Positions 38 through 63,153 of a stretch of 64,000 nt of DNA are shown piece by piece; positions within the stretch are counted from its first letter, which is position 1, and each line of letters opens with the position of its first letter. This DNA is from an uncultured Candidatus Saccharibacteria bacterium (GTDB lineage: Bacteria > Patescibacteriota > UBA1384 > JAGVHQ01). The stretch is from assembly GCA_964362865.1 (NCBI GenBank), contig CAYIGD010000002.1:4253-68252 (forward strand), written 5' to 3'. The notes beneath the pieces are model-generated. The model was not told the origin of the DNA and searched no databases. It saw nothing but the letters and a program-made list of their open reading frames with translations. The position numbers and the translations under genes were made by a program.

Positions 38-2026
38 ATGGTACATGCGCGCCTCTACTTTATCGCAGTGTGCATCCTTGCCGTACTGGCGTTATTTGCC
101 TATCTGATATTGTGGCGCCCGATAATTTTCACCAGCAACGTGATTATTGACGGGGACTACTCCGTTGGCCGCCGGGCAGTTGTGATGAAAGGCGGGGCAA
201 CGCTGACAGTTAAAGGCAGCTTGACGGTGAATGGGTACCTTGGTTGCAAAGACGGGGGATTAGAGGTAACCGTTGTCGGCGATTTTGTGCTCAACGATAC
301 AATCGCCTGCCAACGTGTTGTATCAGATGACGCAAGTGCCATTGCTCCCCAAGGGGTGGCCCTTGTCGTCGGCGGATCAGCAGAGTTTCAAAGTAATTCA
401 GTGGTAGCAAGTAACGGCCATGTTCAAATTGTACCCACGGCTGAGGATCTTTTAACCGAACAAGAACTTGATCAAGCATTCGACGAGATCGGTGAAGATT
501 CAGGTGATGAACCTCGGATTGGGCCTCTCGGTTCACTGGGTAAGGATAGCGTACCTGACCAAGGGACGCAGACGCGCTCGAAACCGGTCAGTACATTGAA
601 TCATTTGCCAACTCAAATTCTTCCCGGAAAATCCTCGCTGATTGCACGCGTGCGAGCGCAGGGTCCGATCCAGCGGATCCTCATCGGCGGCACGTTGTAT
701 GTTGGTTCGAGGGACAAGCCGCTCCCGAAATGGATTGACGTGAAAAAACTCCCCAAGAAAGTAAAACGGGTTGTCGTGCGGGCGTATTTCCCCAATGGGG
801 ATGTCGAGTTTAGGGACAAGAGCGTGATCCTTTCACCAGATGGGCAAGACGGCCCTGATATCACAGGTGGATGCGACATCAATGTCCCTAAGCAAGAGAG
901 TGAAGCCGATAGAAAGGCACGCGACGCGATGCGCATGCGGGTGATGGCTCGCAACATTACGATTGGGGAGCTCGATTTGTATTTAGGTGATGGTGGACGG
1001 GGCGGGAACGCAACTACCGATCCAGATTGCGACCCGATCGGTAAAGCGATTGCTGGGCACGGTGGCCAATCAGGCAATTTCAAGATGAATACTGCCACTG
1101 GTGGGGCGCTCAAGATTCGAGGTCCGTTTCGAATTCATCCCGGCGTATCAGGCGCTGGCGGGGCTGCGACCGCGTACGGTAGAGATGGCAAAAACGGTGA
1201 AATCGGTGAAAACGGAAAAGCGGCCATAGCCGCCGGGGGGAATGGCGCGGATAACATCAAGGCTTTACGCGCGCGCGGCATAGCTGATTTACAAAATATT
1301 TACATTGATTCCCTCATTGCTGGTGACGGCGGAGACGGCATCGCGAGCCCGGGCGACGGCGGGGACAGTTCCAAATGTGATACGAAAGGCGGATTGCCCG
1401 GTGCGGGCGGCGCAAGCGGAGGGGCAGGTGGAACAGCGCGGCTTGATTACCCACTTCAGGTACGCGACATTCCCAGTGCGGTTGATCAAGATGGCTTGGA
1501 CGGAAATCCAATCATAGACGACGCAAACCCGGGAGCAGATGGTCCCCCCTGTGCGGGTGGGGATGGGAGAGTTCCAGATAAGACAAGCGTAACAGAGCCA
1601 ACAAAGACACCATCCAAAACCGATGGCGGATCCTCGTCAGGAAATGATGCTGTAAAAACGCCCACTCCAGCGCCGACCCCACCAACGCCGACCGTAGTCA
1701 AAGCCCTGGGCAAATTTGAGTTTCTTGATTCGCAATTCCAGCCGATAATTAATCTCCCAACCAGCTCACAGGTAGCGGTCCATATTATTGTTGCCAGTAC
1801 CGGTGGGAACCCCGATATCCGCCTCTACTTGCCGATTACGCTCGAGCTAAAGTCGGACGGCCAAGTTGTCTGGACTGGCACGATCGCCAATGACCCTGTC
1901 CTGAATTGTCGCGGCGCCGATGGCTGTAGTATGGATGGGCCAACAATCAGTGCGGCTTGGATAAAGAAACAATTGAAAGCGACCGGCAAAAACGGGGAGA
2001 TCCTCGCCACGTATTCCGAGCAGTAA
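38..2026 (+). CDS. Hypothetical membrane-anchored surface protein with beta-helix-like repeats, Gly/Asp-rich collagen-like runs, a Pro/Thr linker and a C-terminal domain
   Basis: 662 aa ORF with an N-terminal hydrophobic helix (LYFIAVCILAVLALFAYLILW). Repeats such as TVKGSLTVNGYLGCKDGGLEVTVVGDF are followed by Gly-X-Y-like runs (GKNGEIGENGKA, GDGGDGIASPGDGGDSS, GLPGAGGASGGAGGTA), a TPTPAPTPPTPT linker and a C-terminal domain of about 100 aa. I recognise no family. Confidence 0.6.
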   Translation: MVHARLYFIAVCILAVLALFAYLILWRPIIFTSNVIIDGDYSVGRRAVVMKGGATLTVKGSLTVNGYLGCKDGGLEVTVVGDFVLNDTIACQRVVSDDASAIAPQGVALVVGGSAEFQSNSVVASNGHVQIVPTAEDLLTEQELDQAFDEIGEDSGDEPRIGPLGSLGKDSVPDQGTQTRSKPVSTLNHLPTQILPGKSSLIARVRAQGPIQRILIGGTLYVGSRDKPLPKWIDVKKLPKKVKRVVVRAYFPNGDVEFRDKSVILSPDGQDGPDITGGCDINVPKQESEADRKARDAMRMRVMARNITIGELDLYLGDGGRGGNATTDPDCDPIGKAIAGHGGQSGNFKMNTATGGALKIRGPFRIHPGVSGAGGAATAYGRDGKNGEIGENGKAAIAAGGNGADNIKALRARGIADLQNIYIDSLIAGDGGDGIASPGDGGDSSKCDTKGGLPGAGGASGGAGGTARLDYPLQVRDIPSAVDQDGLDGNPIIDDANPGADGPPCAGGDGRVPDKTSVTEPTKTPSKTDGGSSSGNDAVKTPTPAPTPPTPTVVKALGKFEFLDSQFQPIINLPTSSQVAVHIIVASTGGNPDIRLYLPITLELKSDGQVVWTGTIANDPVLNCRGADGCSMDGPTISAAWIKKQLKATGKNGEILATYSEQ

Positions 2027-7603: not shown

Positions 7604-8413
7604 TTAGTTCTGCAATATTCCTTGGCGTAGCAACTGGTTCAATAACAAAGAAGTTTGTTGGAAGCGTTCTGCCTGGGTGGGTGTGCCCATCACAAGGGTA
7701 ATGATCGCAGGATCTGATTCGGTAAGGCCGAGCAAGTGAGCTCCAGTTTCAGGTAAATAGCCCGTTTTTATCCCTGAAAGTCCCTTACCGAGAAGTTGAT
7801 TTGTGCTTGAGTAAACTCGATTTTCGAACGTGAATGTTTTCTGAGAGACAATTTCTTTGAGCAAGGGGTTTCGCACTACAAGAGCGCCGATTAATAGCAT
7901 ATTTTGAACAGAGCTTATGTTGTGCGGATTAAGTCCGGTTGGCTCGACGATTTCAGTTGCAGTTAAACCGAGTTGTTGCGGAAGTTCTCGAGCAGCAGAA
8001 AAATTAACGCTTCCAAGAATTGCAGCGGCGTCGTTGCCGGATGAGATGAGGGTGGCCTGCAATGCATCGGAAAACGTAATGTTTGATTTTGGTATAAACC
8101 CAATCAAGGGAGCAGGAGTTGGCAGTTCTTCTGGTACCAAAAGCTGATCTGGGTGCGAGGTGTTTTTCAAGGCGGCCAGTGCCGTGAATAATTTTGTAAG
8201 ACTTGCGATTCCGATTGCATCCTGTGAAGAAGAGATGATTTGACCGCTTTGGGGAATATATACACCCCACAGTGGAGCATCCACAGTGAGCGCCGGCTTA
8301 TTAATGATTGATTTTGAATATGAAAAGCGATTTTGAGCAGGGACTGGTTTTGCGGGGAAATTAGTAAGAAGCAGTATCAGGGTTAGGGCGGTGAGCGCAC
8401 CGATTTTTATCAT
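7604..8413 (-). CDS. Secreted D-alanyl-D-alanine carboxypeptidase (peptidase S11 / PBP5-like)
   Basis: Signal peptide, then the three PBP active-site motifs: SxxK (ASLTK), SxN (SSGND) and KTG (IKTGY). Confidence 0.7.
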   Translation of the reverse strand: MIKIGALTALTLILLLTNFPAKPVPAQNRFSYSKSIINKPALTVDAPLWGVYIPQSGQIISSSQDAIGIASLTKLFTALAALKNTSHPDQLLVPEELPTPAPLIGFIPKSNITFSDALQATLISSGNDAAAILGSVNFSAARELPQQLGLTATEIVEPTGLNPHNISSVQNMLLIGALVVRNPLLKEIVSQKTFTFENRVYSSTNQLLGKGLSGIKTGYLPETGAHLLGLTESDPAIITLVMGTPTQAERFQQTSLLLNQLLRQGILQN

Positions 8414-15245: not shown

Positions 15246-15629
15246 TTATGTCTTTTCTGATGCTTTCTTACGGCCTGATCCGACCGTCACCCGTTTGCCG
15301 CGTTTCGTACGGGCATTTGTTTTTGTGCGCTGCCCGCGCACGGGAAGGTTGCGCGCATGCCGCAGTCCGCGATAAGCGTGGATTTCTTTGAGACGTTTAA
15401 TGTTTTGTCCGATCGTCACTTTGAGGTCTCCTTCAACCTTGTAGGCGGAAATTCGTGTTCGAATGCGCTCCACCTCTTCACTAGTGAGGTCTTTGAGCCG
15501 CACGTCTTCTTTCACGCGCGCATCTCGTAATATCTTGCGTGAAAGGGATGGTCCAATCCCGTAGATGGCGGTAATGCCCACCACGACCCTTTTTCCCATC
15601 GGTAAAAGTGTGCCCGCAATTCGAATCAT
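15246..15629 (-). CDS. rpsM: 30S ribosomal protein S13
   Basis: [26 protein letters not shown] and the basic C-terminal tail. Confidence 0.95.
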   Translation of the reverse strand: MIRIAGTLLPMGKRVVVGITAIYGIGPSLSRKILRDARVKEDVRLKDLTSEEVERIRTRISAYKVEGDLKVTIGQNIKRLKEIHAYRGLRHARNLPVRGQRTKTNARTKRGKRVTVGSGRKKASEKT

Positions 15630-15742
15630 TATCCCTGTCTTTGTTTATGTTTCGGGCTCGTGCAGATTACCCGAACAACACCCGCTCTGCGGATTATTTT
15701 ACAGTTACGGCACATTTTCTTAACCGATGGCCTTACCTTCAT
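15629..15742 (-). CDS. rpmJ: 50S ribosomal protein L36
   Basis: Not in the ORF track. Reverse-complement translation gives [37 protein letters not shown] (37 aa, C-x2-C...C-x4-H zinc ribbon). Its TAA stop shares 1 nt with the rpsM ATG, and the infA stop overlaps its start. Confidence 0.85.
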
Positions 15743-15975: not shown

Positions 15976-16786
15976 GCGTGGGCTCTACCTCAACTCTTCC
16001 AATTCGCCCGAGAATTCGAGCGTACGCCTCTAGTGTAGCGTTTTGAGGGCGTTTCGTCAAGATCTCAGCCCCTTTTTTGGTAACTAGTATCGTATGTTCG
16101 AAATGAGCGGCGTTTTTTCCGTCGGCCGTTCGCACTGTCCAAGCGTCCGGGTCAGTCACAACGTGCCAGTCACCCAGAGTGACCATCGGTTCGATCGCTA
16201 ATGCCATTCCCGCTGCCAGGATAGGGCCTGTTCCAATTTCTCCAAGATTCAGGATCCGCGGATCCATCTGAAGTGCGGGTCCGATCCCGTGTCCGCACAG
16301 GTCCCGCACAATCCCGAGCCGAGCTTGCGTGATTACATCTGCAATCGCGGCCTGTACGTCGCCGAGGTGAACCCCATCCCGTACCTTCGCGATTCCCGCC
16401 ATCAGAGCAGATTCGGTCACTTGGAGGAGTCGGGCGTCTTCCAAGCGAGGTTTTCCAATAATTATGGTAAGGGCGGAGTCAACAAATACACCTTTGTTCT
16501 TCAAGCCGATGTCAATTCCCAAAACATCGCCAGTGCGGATACGTTCGTTATTCGGGATGCCATGCACCAGGGCGTCATTGCGTGAAAGACAGGTTGCATA
16601 ACGGTATCCTTGATGATTAAGGAATGCGGCCTTGACCCGCGCTTGTTTTATGCGCGCGTAGGCGAACGTGTCCAAAGCGATAAGAGTTACGCCGGGTTTT
16701 GCGGCCTGTGCGGTGAGAGCAAGGATATATCCTAAAAGCGGACCAAGTTCGCGCATGGCATTTATTTGTTTTTGGGAAAGAATCAT
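15968..16786 (-). CDS. map: Methionine aminopeptidase type I
   Basis: Metal-binding residues of the pita-bread fold (D...D...H...E...E pattern) with [14 protein letters not shown] and FEHTILVT. Confidence 0.92.
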
Positions 16787-17445
16787 CGTGCCTCTTTTTT
16801 TAAAAAAGTGTTGATTTCAGTAAGCAAAGCGCGCGTGACATCTTTAATCGGCGGGGTGCCGTCTACGCTTACTAAGCGGCCTTGTACGCGATAATGGTCA
16901 ATTACCGGAAGGGTTTGACGCCGAAAAATATCAAGCCGTTTTCGAATTGACTGTTCGGTATCGTCATGGCGAACCACAAGCGTCCCCCCGCATTTTTTGC
17001 ACTGTTCGGCAAATTCTTCGGACGAAGAAGGGGCTTTGATTGTGGCAACCAACTTGCAATTCGTGCAAATACGACGGTTTTTTATGCGTTCAAGGGAAAT
17101 TTTTTCGGGTAGCGTAATATAGACCGCGAACGGCTCCGCTCCTTTATATTTCTTCAACAGGAAGTTGAAATCGTTATACTGGCGCATATCACGCGGAAAT
17201 CCGTCAAAGACTATTCCATTAGCCTGATGGGTTTTAAAGTAATCCTCCATCAACTGGAAAATGAATCCATCCGGAATAAGCTTTCCTTGCGAAAGTATCC
17301 GTTCGATTTCTGGGTCGTGATGAGTGCGGGCAAATTCCCGCAGAACGTCTCCCGTGGAAAAAACTCGATATCCAAAATGCTTGGCGAGCTCCTTAGTTTG
17401 CGTTCCCTTCCCGCTTCCTTGCGGGCCGAATAAAGCAATGTTCAT
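16783..17445 (-). CDS. adk: Adenylate kinase
   Basis: P-loop GPQGSGKGTQ and a Zn-binding LID (CTNCK...CKKCGG). Confidence 0.93.
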   Translation of the reverse strand: MNIALFGPQGSGKGTQTKELAKHFGYRVFSTGDVLREFARTHHDPEIERILSQGKLIPDGFIFQLMEDYFKTHQANGIVFDGFPRDMRQYNDFNFLLKKYKGAEPFAVYITLPEKISLERIKNRRICTNCKLVATIKAPSSSEEFAEQCKKCGGTLVVRHDDTEQSIRKRLDIFRRQTLPVIDHYRVQGRLVSVDGTPPIKDVTRALLTEINTFLKKEAR

Positions 17446-18425
17446 TGAATGTTGAGGATGTTAGTTGCCGGCCCGAGGGTTGTGTTGTTGAGGAAAAGGG
17501 TGGTGGGTGTGTCAATTTTTGCGCGACTAATATTAAGTAGGCCAGTTGGGGTTTCGTGGGCATCGGAGAAGATCCGGTCAAACTCGCCATAGTCTTTCAA
17601 AAGCTGTCCGGTTAGGGAAAATGTCTGAACGCTTGTTTTCAGATCGGTTACTTTGAAGGATACAAGCACTCGTTCGCCCGTTACCCGTAGCGCGCGTACC
17701 GGCTGTGTAAAAGTTTTTAAAACAATCGGATCAGCAGGCGTTGTGGGAACTCGCTTCAGCAGGTATTGGGAGTTGCTGGGCGCGATATAATAGACCGCAC
17801 TTGCGTCCCCCGACCACTGGGGGAAGAGAATGCCTTCCTGTTCTTGGGCAAGTATGGAGGGTCCACTGTTGCCGAGTGAGTTTTTCATAAGATCAAATGA
17901 CGCGCCCTGCGCGTTCTGATTAAATTGAACGGTAAGATATGCGCTTCGGTCGGAAGATACACTCGGTGGTTGCACAGAAGAAACCGATTCGGCAAGCACC
18001 GTTGCCTGCGCGCTCCCTGCTTTTGGAAAGAGCACTAAGTCGACAACAGCTCCCATAAGATCCGTATTTTCTCGAGCGCGAGTTGCAATGATGGAATCGG
18101 AGCTGGAATAGACCACTTCCAAATACCCGCTCCCAGGTCCACGGGTAATGATTTGGGAGTTTTTCTGTGTTAGATTATAGGCGATCACTTCGCCGGTCGG
18201 AGCCGAGAATGCGTAAATAATCTGCTCGACGGGCGTTTTCTCTGGCTCAGGACTACTGCTCGGTGAACTCTGGTTCTCTGGTGTTGGACTCGCGTTCGAT
18301 ATAATCACGCTTGAGCTTGTTTCGCTCGTCGGCTTTGTCGTATCGGCGCGTACGACCAAATACCCGAAGCTGGCCAAGGCAAGCATGAAAATCACGGTTG
18401 AGAATGTTTTTCGTGCGCGTTTCAT
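17442..18425 (-). CDS. Hypothetical secreted protein inserted between secY and adk
   Basis: 327 aa with a signal peptide or anchor (VIFMLALASFGYLVVRA) and a Ser/Thr/Pro-rich linker, then a beta-rich domain with no motif I recognise. Its stop overlaps the adk start by 4 nt, and its start abuts the secY stop. Confidence 0.55.
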   Translation of the reverse strand: MKRARKTFSTVIFMLALASFGYLVVRADTTKPTSETSSSVIISNASPTPENQSSPSSSPEPEKTPVEQIIYAFSAPTGEVIAYNLTQKNSQIITRGPGSGYLEVVYSSSDSIIATRARENTDLMGAVVDLVLFPKAGSAQATVLAESVSSVQPPSVSSDRSAYLTVQFNQNAQGASFDLMKNSLGNSGPSILAQEQEGILFPQWSGDASAVYYIAPSNSQYLLKRVPTTPADPIVLKTFTQPVRALRVTGERVLVSFKVTDLKTSVQTFSLTGQLLKDYGEFDRIFSDAHETPTGLLNISRAKIDTPTTLFLNNTTLGPATNILNIQ

Positions 18426-18426
18426 C

Positions 18427-19698
18427 TTACGAAAACGTATCGTACGTGCGCATCACGACTTGGGCCTTGAGTTGGCGGGTGGTTTCGATAATAACGGAAA
18501 CCAAAATAAGAATACTAGTCCCACCCAGCACCAGAGTCTGGACCTTCGTGAGTGACTGTACAATAAACGGCAGAACCGCAACCAGCGCGATAAATAACCC
18601 CCCCAAAGTGGTAATGCGGATTAAGCTCGTGCGCAGATACGTGGCAGTCTCGTTCCCGGGCCGGATGCCGGGGATGAACCCCCCCTGTTTTTGGAGATTT
18701 TCCGCCACCTGAGGGGGCTGGAAGACAACGAATGTATAGAAAAAAGTAAACGCAAAAACAAACACGAAATACAGGATTCCATATACGGTTTGATTTTCAA
18801 GCAATCGCGTGAGCGTGTTCGCGGCATTCGCAATCCATTCGGTTTTAGCTAGAGCAAAGAAGCGCGCGACTACGGTTGGGAAGATCAACATTGAAAGCGC
18901 AAAAATAATCGGGATTACGCCGGCGGAATTCACCTTGAGCGGAATATGGGTATTCACGCCCGCCCAACTGCGTTGCCCTCTTACTCGGCGGGCATACGTT
19001 ACCGGAATTTGGCGTTCGCCCTGCGTAATAAATACAATCGCGGCGACCGTTGCGATCCCGATTGCGGCAAACGCAACCAGGCCAAAAATTTTACCGGTAT
19101 CCACAACCGCCAATGTATTGCGTACTTGAGTTGGGAGGCCGGACACGATCCCGAGCGCGATTAACATCGAGATTCCATTGCCAATACCGTTTTCAGAAAT
19201 AATTTCTCCAAGCCACATTAAAAGCATGGTCGTGGCGGTCGTGACCGCGAGCATGGTTGCGATCTGGATTCCATCCCATTCTGGCAGGATCCCTTGCTGT
19301 CGGAATAAAAGCAATGTTCCGATCCCTTGTAAGATCGCCATCGGAACGGTTAGGAGCCGCGTGTATTGGGTGATTTTTTTGCGGCCAAACTCCCCTTCTT
19401 TCTGGAGCGCCTCGAGCGATGGGACCACGTAGGTCATCAGCTGCACGACAATCGATGCGGTAATATAGGGGCCGACTCCCATCAACATGATTGAGAAATT
19501 ACTGAGTGTCCCGCCCGAGAAGAGATCCAGTAATCCAAAAAGCTGGTTTTGGGAGAAAAATTGTGAAAGTTGGCGGATGTCCACGCCCGGCAAAGGAACG
19601 TGCGCAATAAAGCGGGTTAAAATAAGAATCCCGACCGTTATCAGGGCTTTGCGCCGCAGGTCAGGTAAGCGCCAGATTTTGACAAGGAAATTGAACAT
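18427..19698 (-). CDS. secY: Preprotein translocase subunit SecY
   Basis: 423 aa, 10-TM SecY pattern with an N-terminus of the form L...DLRRK-L-T-L-L--R and a C-terminus ending RTYDTF. Confidence 0.93.
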   Translation of the reverse strand: MFNFLVKIWRLPDLRRKALITVGILILTRFIAHVPLPGVDIRQLSQFFSQNQLFGLLDLFSGGTLSNFSIMLMGVGPYITASIVVQLMTYVVPSLEALQKEGEFGRKKITQYTRLLTVPMAILQGIGTLLLFRQQGILPEWDGIQIATMLAVTTATTMLLMWLGEIISENGIGNGISMLIALGIVSGLPTQVRNTLAVVDTGKIFGLVAFAAIGIATVAAIVFITQGERQIPVTYARRVRGQRSWAGVNTHIPLKVNSAGVIPIIFALSMLIFPTVVARFFALAKTEWIANAANTLTRLLENQTVYGILYFVFVFAFTFFYTFVVFQPPQVAENLQKQGGFIPGIRPGNETATYLRTSLIRITTLGGLFIALVAVLPFIVQSLTKVQTLVLGGTSILILVSVIIETTRQLKAQVVMRTYDTFS

Positions 19699-19708
19699 AT
19701 ATCAAGAA

Positions 19709-20335
19709 TCAATTATACCCGAACAGAGTTTCGTTTACACTGGATGCGCTCTTTCTGCCAAACTCGGGAGCACGTTCGTAGCGGGGGTGTTGCGATCTAT
19801 ACGCAGTATTGAGTGCGATAATTTCAGATAGCTCTTTACGCTGCAGCTTATTTTTTGAAAACGGCGTACTCGGGTATCCCACCGCTAATAAAACAATCAC
19901 GCGCCCGCTATGGGGTATTCCGATCAGCTCGGCGATTGGTTTTTGTTTAAATCCGGCAATTTGATTAACGATTAAACCGCGCTCAAGCGCTGCGAGTGTG
20001 AACGCCATAACAGCCGCGCCTACATCGTATAAATAAAATAAGGTGTTGCCGATACGGTCGTCAAAAGCCGGATCTGACCAGACGGCAATCATAAGCGGTG
20101 CCTCTGCCCCCCATTCGTTTCCCGGATGAAGATTTTCATGAATTTTCGTGCGCACCGGTTTATCTCGGAGTATTACAAATCGCCACGGTTGTGTGTTGTG
20201 GGATGAGGGTGCCCATTGTGCGGCTTCAAAAAGTGCTTTCATGACAGATTTCAGCGGAATTCTTGTCAAAAAAAATCGTGAGCGAACCCTTTGCTTCAAA
20301 ATTGTGGGCAGCCCCAGGCGCGCTCGCACTCGCAT
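19709..20335 (-). CDS. Nitroreductase-family protein (NAD(P)H-flavin oxidoreductase-like) inserted between rplO and secY
   Basis: RVRSRFF...PLKSVMKALFEAAQWAPSSHNTQPWRFVIL is the nitroreductase N-terminal signature (RRS-R-F ... A-SS-N-QPW-F). The ATG at 20333-20335 sits 4 nt after the rplO stop. Confidence 0.7.
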   Translation of the reverse strand: MRVRARLGLPTILKQRVRSRFFLTRIPLKSVMKALFEAAQWAPSSHNTQPWRFVILRDKPVRTKIHENLHPGNEWGAEAPLMIAVWSDPAFDDRIGNTLFYLYDVGAAVMAFTLAALERGLIVNQIAGFKQKPIAELIGIPHSGRVIVLLAVGYPSTPFSKNKLQRKELSEIIALNTAYRSQHPRYERAPEFGRKSASSVNETLFGYN

Positions 20336-20339
20336 ACGT

Positions 20340-20750
20340 TTAGACCCGCTGCGCGTGCTTTTTAGTAAGTTTGATATGCTCTCCCAGTGTGAATCCGGTG
20401 GGAAGCGGTCCGCCAATCAGCTTCACTGCACTTACGCTTGTTTTAAGCAGGCCGGCTTGGCGTAATTTTTCGAGCGTAACTTGAGTAGGCTTTAATTTTT
20501 GGGTGAGCGCTTGGATCGTCACCGCAATCGGTTTTGTGCCTTGGCGCATCTGCCGCGAGAGTGAGCCGCGTTTTTTAGGGATTCTACGGATCAGGGGGGT
20601 TTGCCCGCCTTCAAACCGCGCAGATACCCTATATCGGGCTCTTTGACCTTTGGTACCTCGTCCGGCAGTTTTACCTTGCCCGGCTGCAATCCCCCGCCCG
20701 ACCCGGACCCTATTTTTTATTTGTCTTTTTGGAAGCTCGGTTAGATTCAT
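20340..20750 (-). CDS. rplO: 50S ribosomal protein L15
   Basis: [24 protein letters not shown] matches L15. Confidence 0.9.
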
Positions 20751-21276
20751 GTTTCTCTTCTTTCTGCTTTTGATTTTTAGCTTTCACGGTAACGCGTTGC
20801 GTTGGATTTTGATATGCGATGCGGGATTTTTCAGGTCGAAACGAAAGCAGCGCCTGTTGGGTGGCCCGAATCGTATTCAATTTATTTGAAGATCCCATAC
20901 TCTTCGTAATAATGTTTTTAATCCCGGCCACTTCCGCAATCGCCCGCACCGGGCCTCCCGCGATCACCGATGTTCCTGCTCTGGCGGGTTTTAACATGAC
21001 GGTCACGCCAGAAAAGAAACCAGTTGTCGGATGTGGGATTGTACCAGCGTGAAGCGGGATTGAAAACAGACTTCGCTTTGCTTGGGTAAAGGCTTTTTTT
21101 ACGGCAGCTTGCACTTCCGCCGCCTTTGCCACGCCGATCCCGACTGAACCTTGATGGTTACCAATCACAACGACGGCACGGAAACGGATCCGTCGACCGC
21201 CTTTTACGGTGCGAGCGACACGATTGATTTCGATCACTCGCTCTTCAAACTCTGGTTTTTCGGGTGAATCTTGCAT
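20710..21276 (-). CDS. rpsE: 30S ribosomal protein S5 (with Lys-rich C-terminal tail)
   Basis: [42 protein letters not shown] matches S5. Start chosen at MQDSPEK just after the rplR stop. The tail is [24 protein letters not shown]. The 3' end overlaps rplO by about 41 nt. No rpmD (L30) lies between. Confidence 0.9.
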
Positions 21277-21283
21277 TTTACTC

Positions 21284-21607
21284 CTATATCGTAAGGCCCG
21301 TGCTACGCGCCCCGTCGCAAATTCGTTGTACGTTGCCATGGTATGCGCGTGCTCCGCGGTCGAATACAACGCGTGTAATTTTTTTGGCAAGTGCTGCTTT
21401 ACCAATCGTCTCCCCAAGCTTAGTTGCCGCTTGGGCGGCTTCGCCTTTGGCGGGACGCACCAGTTGCGCGGCTAAGACCCGACCACCGTGATCGATTACT
21501 TGTGTATAGAAACTCCGGTTTGAAATTGTGACTACAAGGCGCGGGTAGAGCGCGGATTTAGCCCGCGCACGAACTTTTTGTTTTCGTCGAATACTTGAAA
21601 AACTCAT
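21284..21607 (-). CDS. rplR: 50S ribosomal protein L18
   Basis: RKQKVRARAKSALYPRLVVTISNRSFYTQVID...RVVFDRGARAYHGNVQRICDGAR matches L18. Confidence 0.9.
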   Translation of the reverse strand: MSFSSIRRKQKVRARAKSALYPRLVVTISNRSFYTQVIDHGGRVLAAQLVRPAKGEAAQAATKLGETIGKAALAKKITRVVFDRGARAYHGNVQRICDGARSTGLTI

Positions 21608-41717: not shown

Positions 41718-42746
41718 TTATATACCCGGATCAAACGGTCGGCCGTTTCGTTCTGTTTGTAAATGCAGATGCGGTCCGGTAGAGTTTCCGGTGTCACCGA
41801 CGCCGCCGATTACTTCCGCTTGTCCGACTGTTTGTCCGATGCCCACATAGACTTGATTAAGGTGAGCGTACCGAGAAGTAAGGCCACCACCGTGGCTGAC
41901 CACAATTGATTTTCCGAATCCGCTCCCCCAACCACCCGTAATTTCTATCACAGTCCCGCTTGAAATCGCTCGAACCGGAGCGTTCGTATCCGCGCGATAG
42001 TCTACTCCGGCGTGGGAACGGGTTAAGCGACGTGAAACACCCTGAAACCCGCTTGACAAGGGGAAAACAAAATTTGTGTCTGCTGGCCCCTCTCCTGGGT
42101 CATCAATTCGTTCACGGGTTACTACTCGGCGAGAGGTACTTGTTGCGAGCGCAAGGCGCTTTTCGCGTGCCCTGCGATCTTCCTCTTTCTTTTTATTGAG
42201 GGCGATGAGCCAATCTTGGGAGGTTGAAATGTCTTTGCTGGCGATTTTTAACTCTTGACCGGGGGTCAAATCATTAACCTGGTCATTGGAAAGGCCATTG
42301 GCTTCTTGGACCGAGGCAACATGCAGATCAAACTTGTTCGCCACTGTGCTCGCGGTATCCCCTGCTTGGACAATGTAGGTTGTGTAGGCAACAGGGGCGT
42401 CTGAACGGTCTGATGCGTCAACGGGGATTGCGCTCGTGATCGTTTCTTCTTCGCGAAAATGAGCCGCAACGTTATTTCGGGATTCTCCCAGATAGGGGGT
42501 GTATGGGCCGACTGACTCCACAATGTCAGCCGCTTGCCCTGATGAGGTCAGTAGAATTCCTTGTTCAAGTTGAATTAGTTCCGCGTGCACAGTGATGCGC
42601 TGGAAAACGAGCAGGGCTAAAGCCGTACACAAAAAAGCAGCGTATTGACCGCCCAGACGGATACGACGCATAGGAATTGCTCGCATTCTTTCAGTGACAC
42701 GCCAGACTTCTTTCAGGGCCTTTATTACCCACTGTTGTAAGCTCAC
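41718..42746 (-). CDS. LysM-domain M23 family metallopeptidase
   Basis: N-terminal TM, a LysM domain (YIVQAGDTASTVANKFDL...ANGL) and the M23 motifs HAGVDY and GDTGNSTGPHLHL. Confidence 0.8.
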   Translation of the reverse strand: MSLQQWVIKALKEVWRVTERMRAIPMRRIRLGGQYAAFLCTALALLVFQRITVHAELIQLEQGILLTSSGQAADIVESVGPYTPYLGESRNNVAAHFREEETITSAIPVDASDRSDAPVAYTTYIVQAGDTASTVANKFDLHVASVQEANGLSNDQVNDLTPGQELKIASKDISTSQDWLIALNKKKEEDRRAREKRLALATSTSRRVVTRERIDDPGEGPADTNFVFPLSSGFQGVSRRLTRSHAGVDYRADTNAPVRAISSGTVIEITGGWGSGFGKSIVVSHGGGLTSRYAHLNQVYVGIGQTVGQAEVIGGVGDTGNSTGPHLHLQTERNGRPFDPGI

Positions 42747-52670: not shown

Positions 52671-53282
52671 CTACGCTTCGCGGACGATGTAGAGAACCGT
52701 CCCCCATAAAACGAGTACCGCTAGAGCGGCTCCTAAAAAGCCGGTTAGGGCGAGAAGGCCGATATTAACTTGATTGGCAGAGGTGTACACGGGGGAGGCA
52801 ATAATTTGATATGTATCCTGTTCACCTTGCGATATTTGAGCAAGGCGCTCGCTAAAGATTGTGTGGCTCGCCAGGGCTAGGCGATCAGCATCATCTTTGC
52901 TGCCAGAGCGAAAACGGACAGCTAGGTTTGCCGGGGGGCGTTTTGTAGCGCGGATTAGCTTGCCAACTTTAGCGGGCTTTACGCTCGGTAATTCAACTTG
53001 TGCCGCTCGATATACTTGCTCAACAATTCCAGGGCTTACAAACCACGCTTGAATAATGTCGGCATACTGCTGACTCGCAAGCGTAATGTAATACTGGTCA
53101 TACAGATAGTAATCGGTTTTTTGCTGCGAAAGTGCTGACGATTTACTAACCGTCCAGGTCGTTGCGGCGTCATAGGTTGTGGCAAGACGACTCGTGATGA
53201 CGAATATTAAACCTGCAACAACGATTCCCACACCAACCGCAATCGGAATTGACTTTAGAAATGATTGAAAATCCTTTTTCAT
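52671..53282 (-). CDS. Putative Wzz/CpsC-like polysaccharide chain-length determinant
   Basis: 203 aa with one TM near each terminus and a periplasmic middle. Sits between the DUF4012 gene and a glycosyltransferase. Called on topology and context only. Confidence 0.4.
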   Translation of the reverse strand: MKKDFQSFLKSIPIAVGVGIVVAGLIFVITSRLATTYDAATTWTVSKSSALSQQKTDYYLYDQYYITLASQQYADIIQAWFVSPGIVEQVYRAAQVELPSVKPAKVGKLIRATKRPPANLAVRFRSGSKDDADRLALASHTIFSERLAQISQGEQDTYQIIASPVYTSANQVNIGLLALTGFLGAALAVLVLWGTVLYIVREA

Positions 53283-62751: not shown

Positions 62752-63153
62752 CTAATCCTCGACGTTCACTGTGCCAATCGCCGACGGATTTAAGTGGTTA
62801 TGGTATCCGAACGAACCGACCTTGTCAAAGGTAAAAGAATAGGTAGCACCCGCTTGAAGTTCATCCGATTCAAATCCGCTCAATCCCGTATGAGCGGGGT
62901 GGGGGTTAGAGGCAACCTGCACCGTGCCGCCGTTGACGGTCCAGGTAACGGTTGTTTCCCTTTTCACGATAATGGTCGCAGGGTTAAAATTGTTGGATGT
63001 CGCACTCACTTCGTTTACAAATGCGTTTGGCTCTTGTTGTTCCTCGGTAGTAACTGGCCCCTCTAAAGTAGGATTACTGCGATTTTTGGCAAAAAACCAA
63101 ATCCCGACGGCCACAACAAGCACGATCACGATCACAAGCCATATTTTAGACAC
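62752..63153 (-). CDS. Membrane-anchored cupredoxin-like domain protein (no Cys ligand)
   Basis: N-terminal TM followed by the cupredoxin-type pattern FNPATIIV...TVTWTVNGG...H...GATYSFTF...GSFGYHNHLNPSAIGTVNV. His residues are retained but the type-1 copper Cys is absent. Its stop abuts the ferredoxin start. Confidence 0.45.
   Translation of the reverse strand: MSKIWLVIVIVLVVAVGIWFFAKNRSNPTLEGPVTTEEQQEPNAFVNEVSATSNNFNPATIIVKRETTVTWTVNGGTVQVASNPHPAHTGLSGFESDELQAGATYSFTFDKVGSFGYHNHLNPSAIGTVNVED

Follow-up and report, generated by a model that had tools for sequence, protein, structure and literature searches.

A secY-linked gene of a Berkelbacteria-type bacterium with a predicted membrane-tethered propeller of the PD40/TolB type

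Described propeller and translocon proteins compared with gene X

TolB is a soluble periplasmic protein of diderm bacteria with the outer-membrane lipoprotein Pal as a binding partner. Its C-terminal PD40-type beta-propeller (PDB 7mx5, 1c5k and 2hqs; PF07676) is accompanied by an N-terminal alpha/beta domain that binds TolA (PF04052), and its gene lies in a tolQ-tolR-tolA-tolB-pal neighbourhood. In the present study, a gene located between secY and adk, here called X, was analysed in a 64-kb stretch of contig CAYIGD010000002.1; the whole of this stretch is referred to as the window. The X protein is likewise predicted to form a PD40-type propeller, but it differs from TolB in several respects. 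The TolA-binding domain is absent, the protein appears to be tethered by a predicted transmembrane helix and a stalk, the flanking genes are secY and adk both here and in relatives, and X falls far below the cut-off of the TolB equivalog model TIGR02800. Going by its predicted structure, X adds to the PD40/TolB propeller proteins a new variant that is linked to secY and tethered to the membrane. It would thus show that this type of propeller is used outside Tol-Pal, with a membrane tether in place of the TolA-binding domain.

Other described proteins share parts of this plan. Atu1656, the "putative TolB" of Agrobacterium tumefaciens (PDB 2ojh), is a stand-alone PD40 propeller of unknown function and is among the closest solved relatives; however, it is only 10% identical to X, it comes from a diderm proteobacterium, and nothing links it to secY. 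The propellers of S9 peptidases, DPP-IV and Tricorn appear as repeat-type matches in the X family, but X has no catalytic domain. PpiD and YfgM are membrane-anchored periplasmic chaperones at the SecYEG translocon of Escherichia coli. Like X, as predicted, they are anchored by one transmembrane segment at the N-terminus and carry a large domain outside the cytoplasm, which in X would comprise the remaining 300 residues. Their folds are parvulin/SurA-like and TPR ones, whereas that of X is a propeller, and X is tied to SecY by genetic linkage only; the similarity would be one of working at most and not of family.

One helix followed by a TolB-like propeller also characterizes an uncharacterised clade in a structural phylogeny of TolB relatives, which mentions neither Patescibacteria nor the Candidate Phyla Radiation (CPR) (PMC12204202). 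When compared by architecture only, this clade has the same overall plan as X. In the literature, the coverage of which was incomplete, no account of a gene intervening between secY and adk in CPR bacteria or of TolB-like Berkelbacteria proteins was found, and this is weak evidence of novelty. There is almost no experimental knowledge of the envelope and secretion apparatus of CPR/Patescibacteria, whose tiny genomes lack many accessory factors of model bacteria.

Conservation of gene X and its predicted fold

Gene X occupies positions 17442..18425 (-), with the TGA stop included. Its upstream neighbour is secY (18427..19698 (-); PF00344, E 5.9e-101) and its downstream neighbour is adk, which encodes adenylate kinase (16783..17445 (-); PF00406, E 2.5e-31). 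The coordinates, start and neighbours of the 327-residue open reading frame (ORF) named in the original prediction were thereby confirmed. Three close orthologues, 63–67% identical to X, aligned without gaps across 327 columns; the reading frame was intact in all of them, and the order L15-nitroreductase-secY-X-adk was the same at all three loci. The ratio of nonsynonymous to synonymous substitution rates (dN/dS), calculated by the Nei-Gojobori method for the close orthologues, was 0.12–0.15 for the whole gene at a synonymous rate (dS) of 0.3–1.9, compared with 0.024 for secY. Because the orthologues are gapless and the dN/dS is this low, X is not a chance ORF but a genuine gene under purifying selection.

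The sequence also supports the ATG at 18425 as the conserved start of X. Residues 1–13 were conserved in the orthologues, and position 14, which is Met in the window protein, was Phe there. The public gene call (P0001) is 314 residues long and begins at Met14. Since the orthologues keep residues 1–13 and have Phe at position 14, this call probably starts 13 codons late, leaving out 18387..18425 (-) and cutting into the transmembrane helix.

Close homologues of X were few. A word-indexed search of 5.8 billion proteins returned only four, and phmmer with X against 1.8 billion representatives returned seven proteins only. Five of these seven, with 323–353 residues and 24–32% identity, had the same architecture as X: a basic N-terminus, a single hydrophobic segment, a low-complexity linker and PD40-like repeats. 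The E values were 3e-13 for P0007 and 2e-7 for P0008. Profile re-searches gained few members, and the distant family was revealed by the exhaustive phmmer search of representatives. This family comprises more than 40 members with full-length homology to X. When the clade of the window was aligned by hhalign with 28 other members, the probability was 99.3% (E 3.8e-20, 315 columns). PD40 (PF07676) was matched by 17 of 34 members, repeat matches of the PD40, DPPIV_N and Tricorn types occurred in the family, and the family profile matched a TolB propeller in the PDB at E 1.9e-24.

The structure of X was predicted with AlphaFold2 (AF2). With the four close orthologues alone, the predicted local distance difference test score (pLDDT) was 46 and the model was set aside; the run with 21 diverse sequences (pLDDT 77) was used. 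In this model, residues 5–26 form a helix, residues 28–65 are disordered and residues 66–320 are all-beta, with 22 strands that were read as about six four-stranded blades; the predicted propeller corresponds to codons 66–327 (17445..18230 (-)). TolB propellers were the best matches among solved proteins in both sequence and structure, and the Foldseek matches of the model included the propellers of S9 peptidases. From the profile and model evidence, X was therefore assigned with high confidence as a six-bladed PD40/TolB-type propeller, distantly related to TolB and located outside the cytoplasm. The helix, linker and propeller account for all residues of the model, leaving no attached catalytic domain, and no peptidase domain appeared in the Pfam or NCBIfam results for X. 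A split peptidase was also considered and rejected, as X has no room for a peptidase domain. On the predicted model, the propeller is most likely a non-catalytic binding module.

The signal peptide, Ser/Thr/Pro-rich linker and beta-rich domain described in the original prediction fit a hydrophobic N-terminal segment, a linker and an all-beta region at residues 1–27, 28–65 and 66–320, respectively. The beta-rich domain, which had been left without an assigned function, is now placed as a PD40/TolB-type propeller; its superfamily is known, and the members related to X are functionally uncharacterised. That prediction had regarded identity with a known conserved factor, or a lack of conservation, as speaking against it. 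Relatives were found to carry the gene and the superfamily is a known one, with no characterised member.

Linkage to secY, inheritance and expression

The host of the window was placed by a SecY scan with one genome per species. The best match was Candidatus Berkelbacteria bacterium DeMMO2_25 with 95% identity, and the next relatives, mostly labelled Berkelbacteria or Patescibacteria, followed at 50–61%. By its SecY sequence, the host is a Candidatus Berkelbacteria-type member of CPR/Patescibacteria.

Homologues found by protein similarity alone were located downstream of secY and upstream of adk in 11 of 11 loci, one of which (L004) starts inside a truncated upstream gene that is only presumed to be secY. 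Extra genes lay between X and adk in three of these loci (L004, L175 and L176). The original prediction had proposed checking whether relatives carry the same gene at the same place, and this check was performed with 80 species-representative loci retrieved through SecY. X followed secY in 33 of them (about 40%), with 27 cases detected by hidden Markov model (HMM) and six more by tblastn; in about 40 of the 80, secY was directly followed by adk. CP011213.1 and OY969116.1 are X-positive examples, and the genomes of L042 and L046 are X-negative ones. At 20 of the 28 family loci, the X start lay within -14 to +23 nt of the secY stop, and another small gene lay between secY and X in three loci.

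On a neighbour-joining tree of SecY, the presence of X was clade-structured. X occurred in several deep branches and was absent from one large subclade and from a Magasanikbacteria/Komeilibacteria-like branch. The X-negative species fall mainly into one clade, and any difference in SecY between X-positive and X-negative genomes would therefore be confounded by phylogeny. The pairwise distances of X and SecY were correlated (Mantel r 0.85; 0 of 2000 permutations as high), with X diverging about twice as much as SecY (78% vs 41%). Because of this clade-structured presence and the co-divergence with SecY, X was concluded to have long belonged to the secY-adk-map block, with vertical inheritance and repeated loss, and not to be a recent insertion. 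The gene had earlier been described as inserted into the secY-adk pair; this description does not hold, as X is a diverged member of a family found at this position in many Berkelbacteria-like genomes and is not private to the window. X has stayed immediately downstream of secY even between lineages with SecY proteins about 40% different from one another, and its family is a useful synteny marker for Berkelbacteria sublineages.

Two metagenomic loci (L175 and L176) contained an intact secY-X-LysM-adk-map arrangement without ribosomal-protein genes ahead of secY; the spc cluster is broken just before secY in both. Upstream of the detached secY, one of them carries DUF2207 and NAGPA genes on the opposite strand, and the other carries a same-strand Y1 transposase gene followed by a 179-residue gene on the opposite strand. 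The persistence of secY-X in these loci was considered as proof of a SecY-specific link and rejected, since adk and map move along too. As a control, generic PD40 genes were surveyed, and no secY linkage was observed in one tandem paralogue array and 80 metagenomic PD40 loci. The metagenomic loci came from a scan with the generic PD40 motif, which yielded only generic PD40 genes with 21–38% identity, none of them beside secY or adk.

The slot between secY and adk also receives other genes. At least ten loci (L004, L020-22, L026, L035, L051, L054, L175 and L176) have a gene for a LysM membrane protein after X, and a LysM protein occupies the slot alone in three (L074, L089 and L091). The LysM assignment was made by Pfam in nine of these 13 loci and by size and N-terminal motif in the rest. 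In L021, the LysM protein is followed by a Big_5 immunoglobulin (Ig)-like membrane protein, and small membrane proteins are found in the slot in some lineages. The slot is a hot spot in this clade (L020-L022, L026, L035, L051, L052, L054, L074, L075, L086, L089 and L091).

In the window, X is part of a long minus-strand array of ribosomal and housekeeping genes in the order L15, nitroreductase, secY, X, adk, map, infA, L36, S13, S11, S4, rpoA and L17. The 13 junctions from L15 to L17 measured -8 to +10 nt, and the tight spacing is not peculiar to X. The stop codon of secY and the start codon of X (18423..18429 (-)) read TAA-G-ATG, with no Shine-Dalgarno sequence upstream, and the stop of X overlaps the start of adk as ATGA (17442..17445 (-)). 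Of the 4-nt and 1-nt overlaps reported earlier, the former was found at X/adk, while the latter proved to be a 1-nt spacer at secY/X. There is no intergenic room for a promoter of X itself, and promoter-like and terminator-like sites showed no excess over the shuffled expectation. Among 15 genes tested with a generic anti-Shine-Dalgarno sequence, X and adk had the weakest Shine-Dalgarno potential; their duplex energies were +0.3 and +2.2 kcal/mol, respectively, compared with -1 to -9 for most neighbouring genes.

Owing to the 1-nt spacer, the 4-nt overlap and the lack of a Shine-Dalgarno-like duplex for X and adk, X is probably coupled to secY by termination-reinitiation, and then to adk. This agrees with the earlier suggestion of co-translation with the operon. 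The output of X would track SecY rather than the ribosomal proteins, because X has no detectable Shine-Dalgarno sequence and starts 1 nt after the secY stop. Expression at ribosomal-protein stoichiometry, which had also been suggested, does not follow from co-transcription, as the transcript also encodes SecY, Adk, Map and IF1, and the block persists without ribosomal genes upstream in the two detached loci.

Topology, proposed role and surrounding genes

Codons 1–27 of X (18345..18425 (-)) encode MKRARK, a 19-residue uncharged hydrophobic run (TFSTVIFMLALASFGYLVV) and RA, and were read as a predicted signal-anchor. All 34 aligned members have a short N-terminus followed by an uncharged run of 15–24 residues, and the N-terminus contains Lys or Arg in 31 of them. 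In close relatives, codons 1–31 were the most constrained part of the gene (dN/dS 0–0.09, with a proportion of synonymous differences of 0.12–0.60). Inspection of the 34 members by eye, without a formal scan, revealed no recurring cleavage motif of the Ala-X-Ala type after the hydrophobic run. Given the length of the run, the lack of a recurring cleavage motif and the unusual N-terminal conservation, a retained signal-anchor in N-in/C-out orientation was favoured over a cleaved signal peptide with reasonable, though not strong, confidence.

The following segment, codons 28–65 (18231..18344 (-)), appears to form a stalk. It consists of 63% Ser/Thr/Pro, compared with 26% in the rest of the protein, and is predicted to be disordered (pLDDT <50). 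It had the highest nonsynonymous rate (dN) of the three regions, with a dN/dS of 0.22–0.36 where dS was measurable and a proportion of nonsynonymous differences of 0.38–0.46 against the window, and its length and sequence differ across the family. The propeller would be extracytoplasmic with either an anchor or a cleaved signal peptide, and with an anchor only six residues would face inward. The protein had earlier been called secreted. An extracytoplasmic, beta-rich protein is in keeping with this, but release is doubtful, as the run length and N-terminal conservation favour a signal-anchor. The accompanying suggestion of an envelope component was judged a reasonable reading for a conserved extracytoplasmic protein.

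Taken together, these features suggest the following account. Ribosomes finishing secY would reinitiate 1 nt downstream on X and then, through the ATGA overlap, on adk, and the synthesis of X would be constitutive and would roughly match that of SecY. The Sec machinery would insert X with its N-terminus inside and its C-terminus outside, giving a six-residue basic cytoplasmic tip, one signal-anchor helix, a stalk of about 38 Ser/Thr/Pro-rich residues and a propeller on the outer face. The propeller would then serve as a binding platform for a ligand or protein of the wall or envelope, with the stalk setting its distance from the membrane. Sister lineages encode X in the secY-adk slot together with membrane-anchored proteins of the LysM (peptidoglycan-binding) and Ig-like types. 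The window itself carries genes for a LysM-M23 peptidase and an S11 D-Ala-D-Ala carboxypeptidase-like protein (41718..42746 (-) and 7604..8413 (-), respectively), and therefore the host makes and remodels peptidoglycan, which is relevant to a wall role of X. As a whole, the account of an outward-facing, tethered propeller made in step with SecY and binding the wall or envelope was given an even chance. Its most specific part, a scaffold of the wall or envelope, was held more tentatively, at slightly below even. As a CPR bacterium, the host presumably has a single membrane, and X would be an outward TolB-like binding module in an organism without an outer membrane. X is thus a concrete and cheap candidate for a housekeeping organiser of the wall or envelope, or for a new translocon accessory. 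If it is only a constitutive surface protein, the interest is modest and limited to the lineage level.

Several observations weigh against this account. The X protein itself matched no Pfam family at E <= 0.01 and no NCBIfam model, and its sole Pfam match at E <= 1 was the irrelevant DUF3739, below its cut-off; the fold assignment rests on profile transitivity and structure prediction. Since the conserved residues of the family are those of the structural PD40 motif, the ligand site is unreadable from the sequence. More than half of the related species, among them one large subclade, lack X, and its role must therefore be dispensable or replaceable. Moreover, unrelated genes also occupy the slot, namely a CofE/F420-ligase-like gene in two loci and, in one locus, a gene for 902 residues whose N-terminus looks restriction-modification-like (not scanned), and for this reason the secY-adk position may be simply permissive. 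No LysM partner lies next to X in the window, and tblastn with the partner from L022 found nothing elsewhere in it. Finally, Val-Arg-Ala precedes Asp28, and the site LVVRA|D fits the -3/-1 rule and is compatible with signal peptidase I; cleavage after VRA with release of the protein is possible, although less likely than the anchor.

Such a cleavage would be the basis of a different role. X would be a secretory or surface protein for interaction with host or partner cells, its Sec signal peptide would be cut after VRA27, and the stalk and propeller would be freed from the membrane or bind to the wall. Among CPR bacteria, an episymbiotic life that relies on surface proteins is common. The division of the N-terminus into n-, h- and c-regions, the Val and Ala at -3 and -1 relative to a cut before Asp28, the fast-evolving Ser/Thr/Pro-rich linker and a propeller diverging about twice as much as SecY all suit this role. 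However, the hydrophobic run of 19 residues (15–24 family-wide) is longer than the core of a typical signal peptide, other members show no recurring Ala-X-Ala-type site, and, contrary to the usual drift of signal peptides, conservation is higher over the first 31 codons than over the mature domain. A dN/dS of 0.12–0.15 gives no sign of diversifying selection, and a housekeeping operon is an unusual location for a host-range factor. Release was accordingly considered unlikely. The linkage to secY can also be explained in another way, with X as a lineage-specific accessory subunit of SecYEG. Its helix would dock on SecY or SecE and place the propeller over the channel exit, where X could receive, hold or help fold emerging secretory and wall proteins as a functional analogue of PpiD/YfgM with a different fold, taking over in reduced genomes what periplasmic chaperones or accessory factors do in model bacteria. 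All members with known context lie downstream of secY (11 of 11 by similarity and 33 species loci), mostly with junctions of -14 to +23 nt; the linkage is kept where secY is detached from the ribosomal-protein genes, X co-diverges with SecY, and generic PD40 genes have no such linkage. The helix-bearing N-terminal segment is also the most constrained in close relatives, and a cytoplasmic tail of six residues implies a function in the membrane or outside it. Nevertheless, about half of the related species have neither X nor a replacement gene in the slot, and the divergence of X (78%, compared with 41% for SecY) is about twice that of its supposed partner. As adk and map also stay with secY in the detached loci, X may be a passenger, and in three loci a small gene intervenes between the two. 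An accessory subunit was thus regarded as improbable; if true, it would be of higher interest as a previously unrecognised Sec subunit in a CPR branch.

Two further explanations were rejected. TolB propellers were the best solved matches, and one relative is labelled "Tol biopolymer transport system component", which could make X a true TolB or a Tol-Pal remnant. However, PF04052 was absent from all listed secY-linked members and present in six of seven TolB-type matches of 436–454 residues, and the AF2 model has only a disordered linker between helix and propeller. Relatives scored 32–68 bits with TIGR02800 against a cut-off of 343, and X gave no match. Apart from the secY/adk context, no TolQ/TolR/TolA/Pal-type domain was detected in Pfam scans of 30 other window genes, and the host group is not known to have an outer membrane and hence would have no Pal. 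This identity is very improbable, given the missing TolA-binding domain, a gene context unrelated to Tol-Pal and the low scores. Even less credit was given to a spurious or decaying ORF, to which the lack of Pfam and NCBIfam matches and the mere four close homologues among 5.8 billion proteins might point. The purifying selection measured by dN/dS, the intact frame in gapless orthologues, the full-length homology to more than 40 family members and the confident propeller model leave it a negligible probability.

Rfam and tRNA scans of the 64-kb window found nothing. Outside the secY-adk region, an ORF of 662 residues (38..2026 (+)) and one of 203 residues (52671..53282 (-)) had no Pfam match at E <= 1e-4; the latter lies inside a surface-polysaccharide-like cluster with glycosyltransferase and DUF4012 genes at about 51.3–55.8 kb. 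An ORF of 133 residues (62752..63153 (-)), also without a Pfam match, matched the X-family HMM weakly (E 1.6e-4), which probably reflects only a similar hydrophobic, low-complexity N-terminus. In the ribosomal array, S5 (20710..21417 (-)) is followed by an overlapping L15 gene (20340..20750 (-)) with no L30 gene in between; a lack of L30 is known from CPR genomes. The L36 gene lies at 15629..15742. A second non-ribosomal gene of the operon lies between L15 and secY (19709..20416 (-)), with Met28 at 20335 as the likely true start. It encodes a protein of about 208 residues of the nitroreductase family (PF00881, E 2e-17), and it was found only in the close relatives of the window (L001, L002, L003 and L012), being absent from the other 80-odd related loci.

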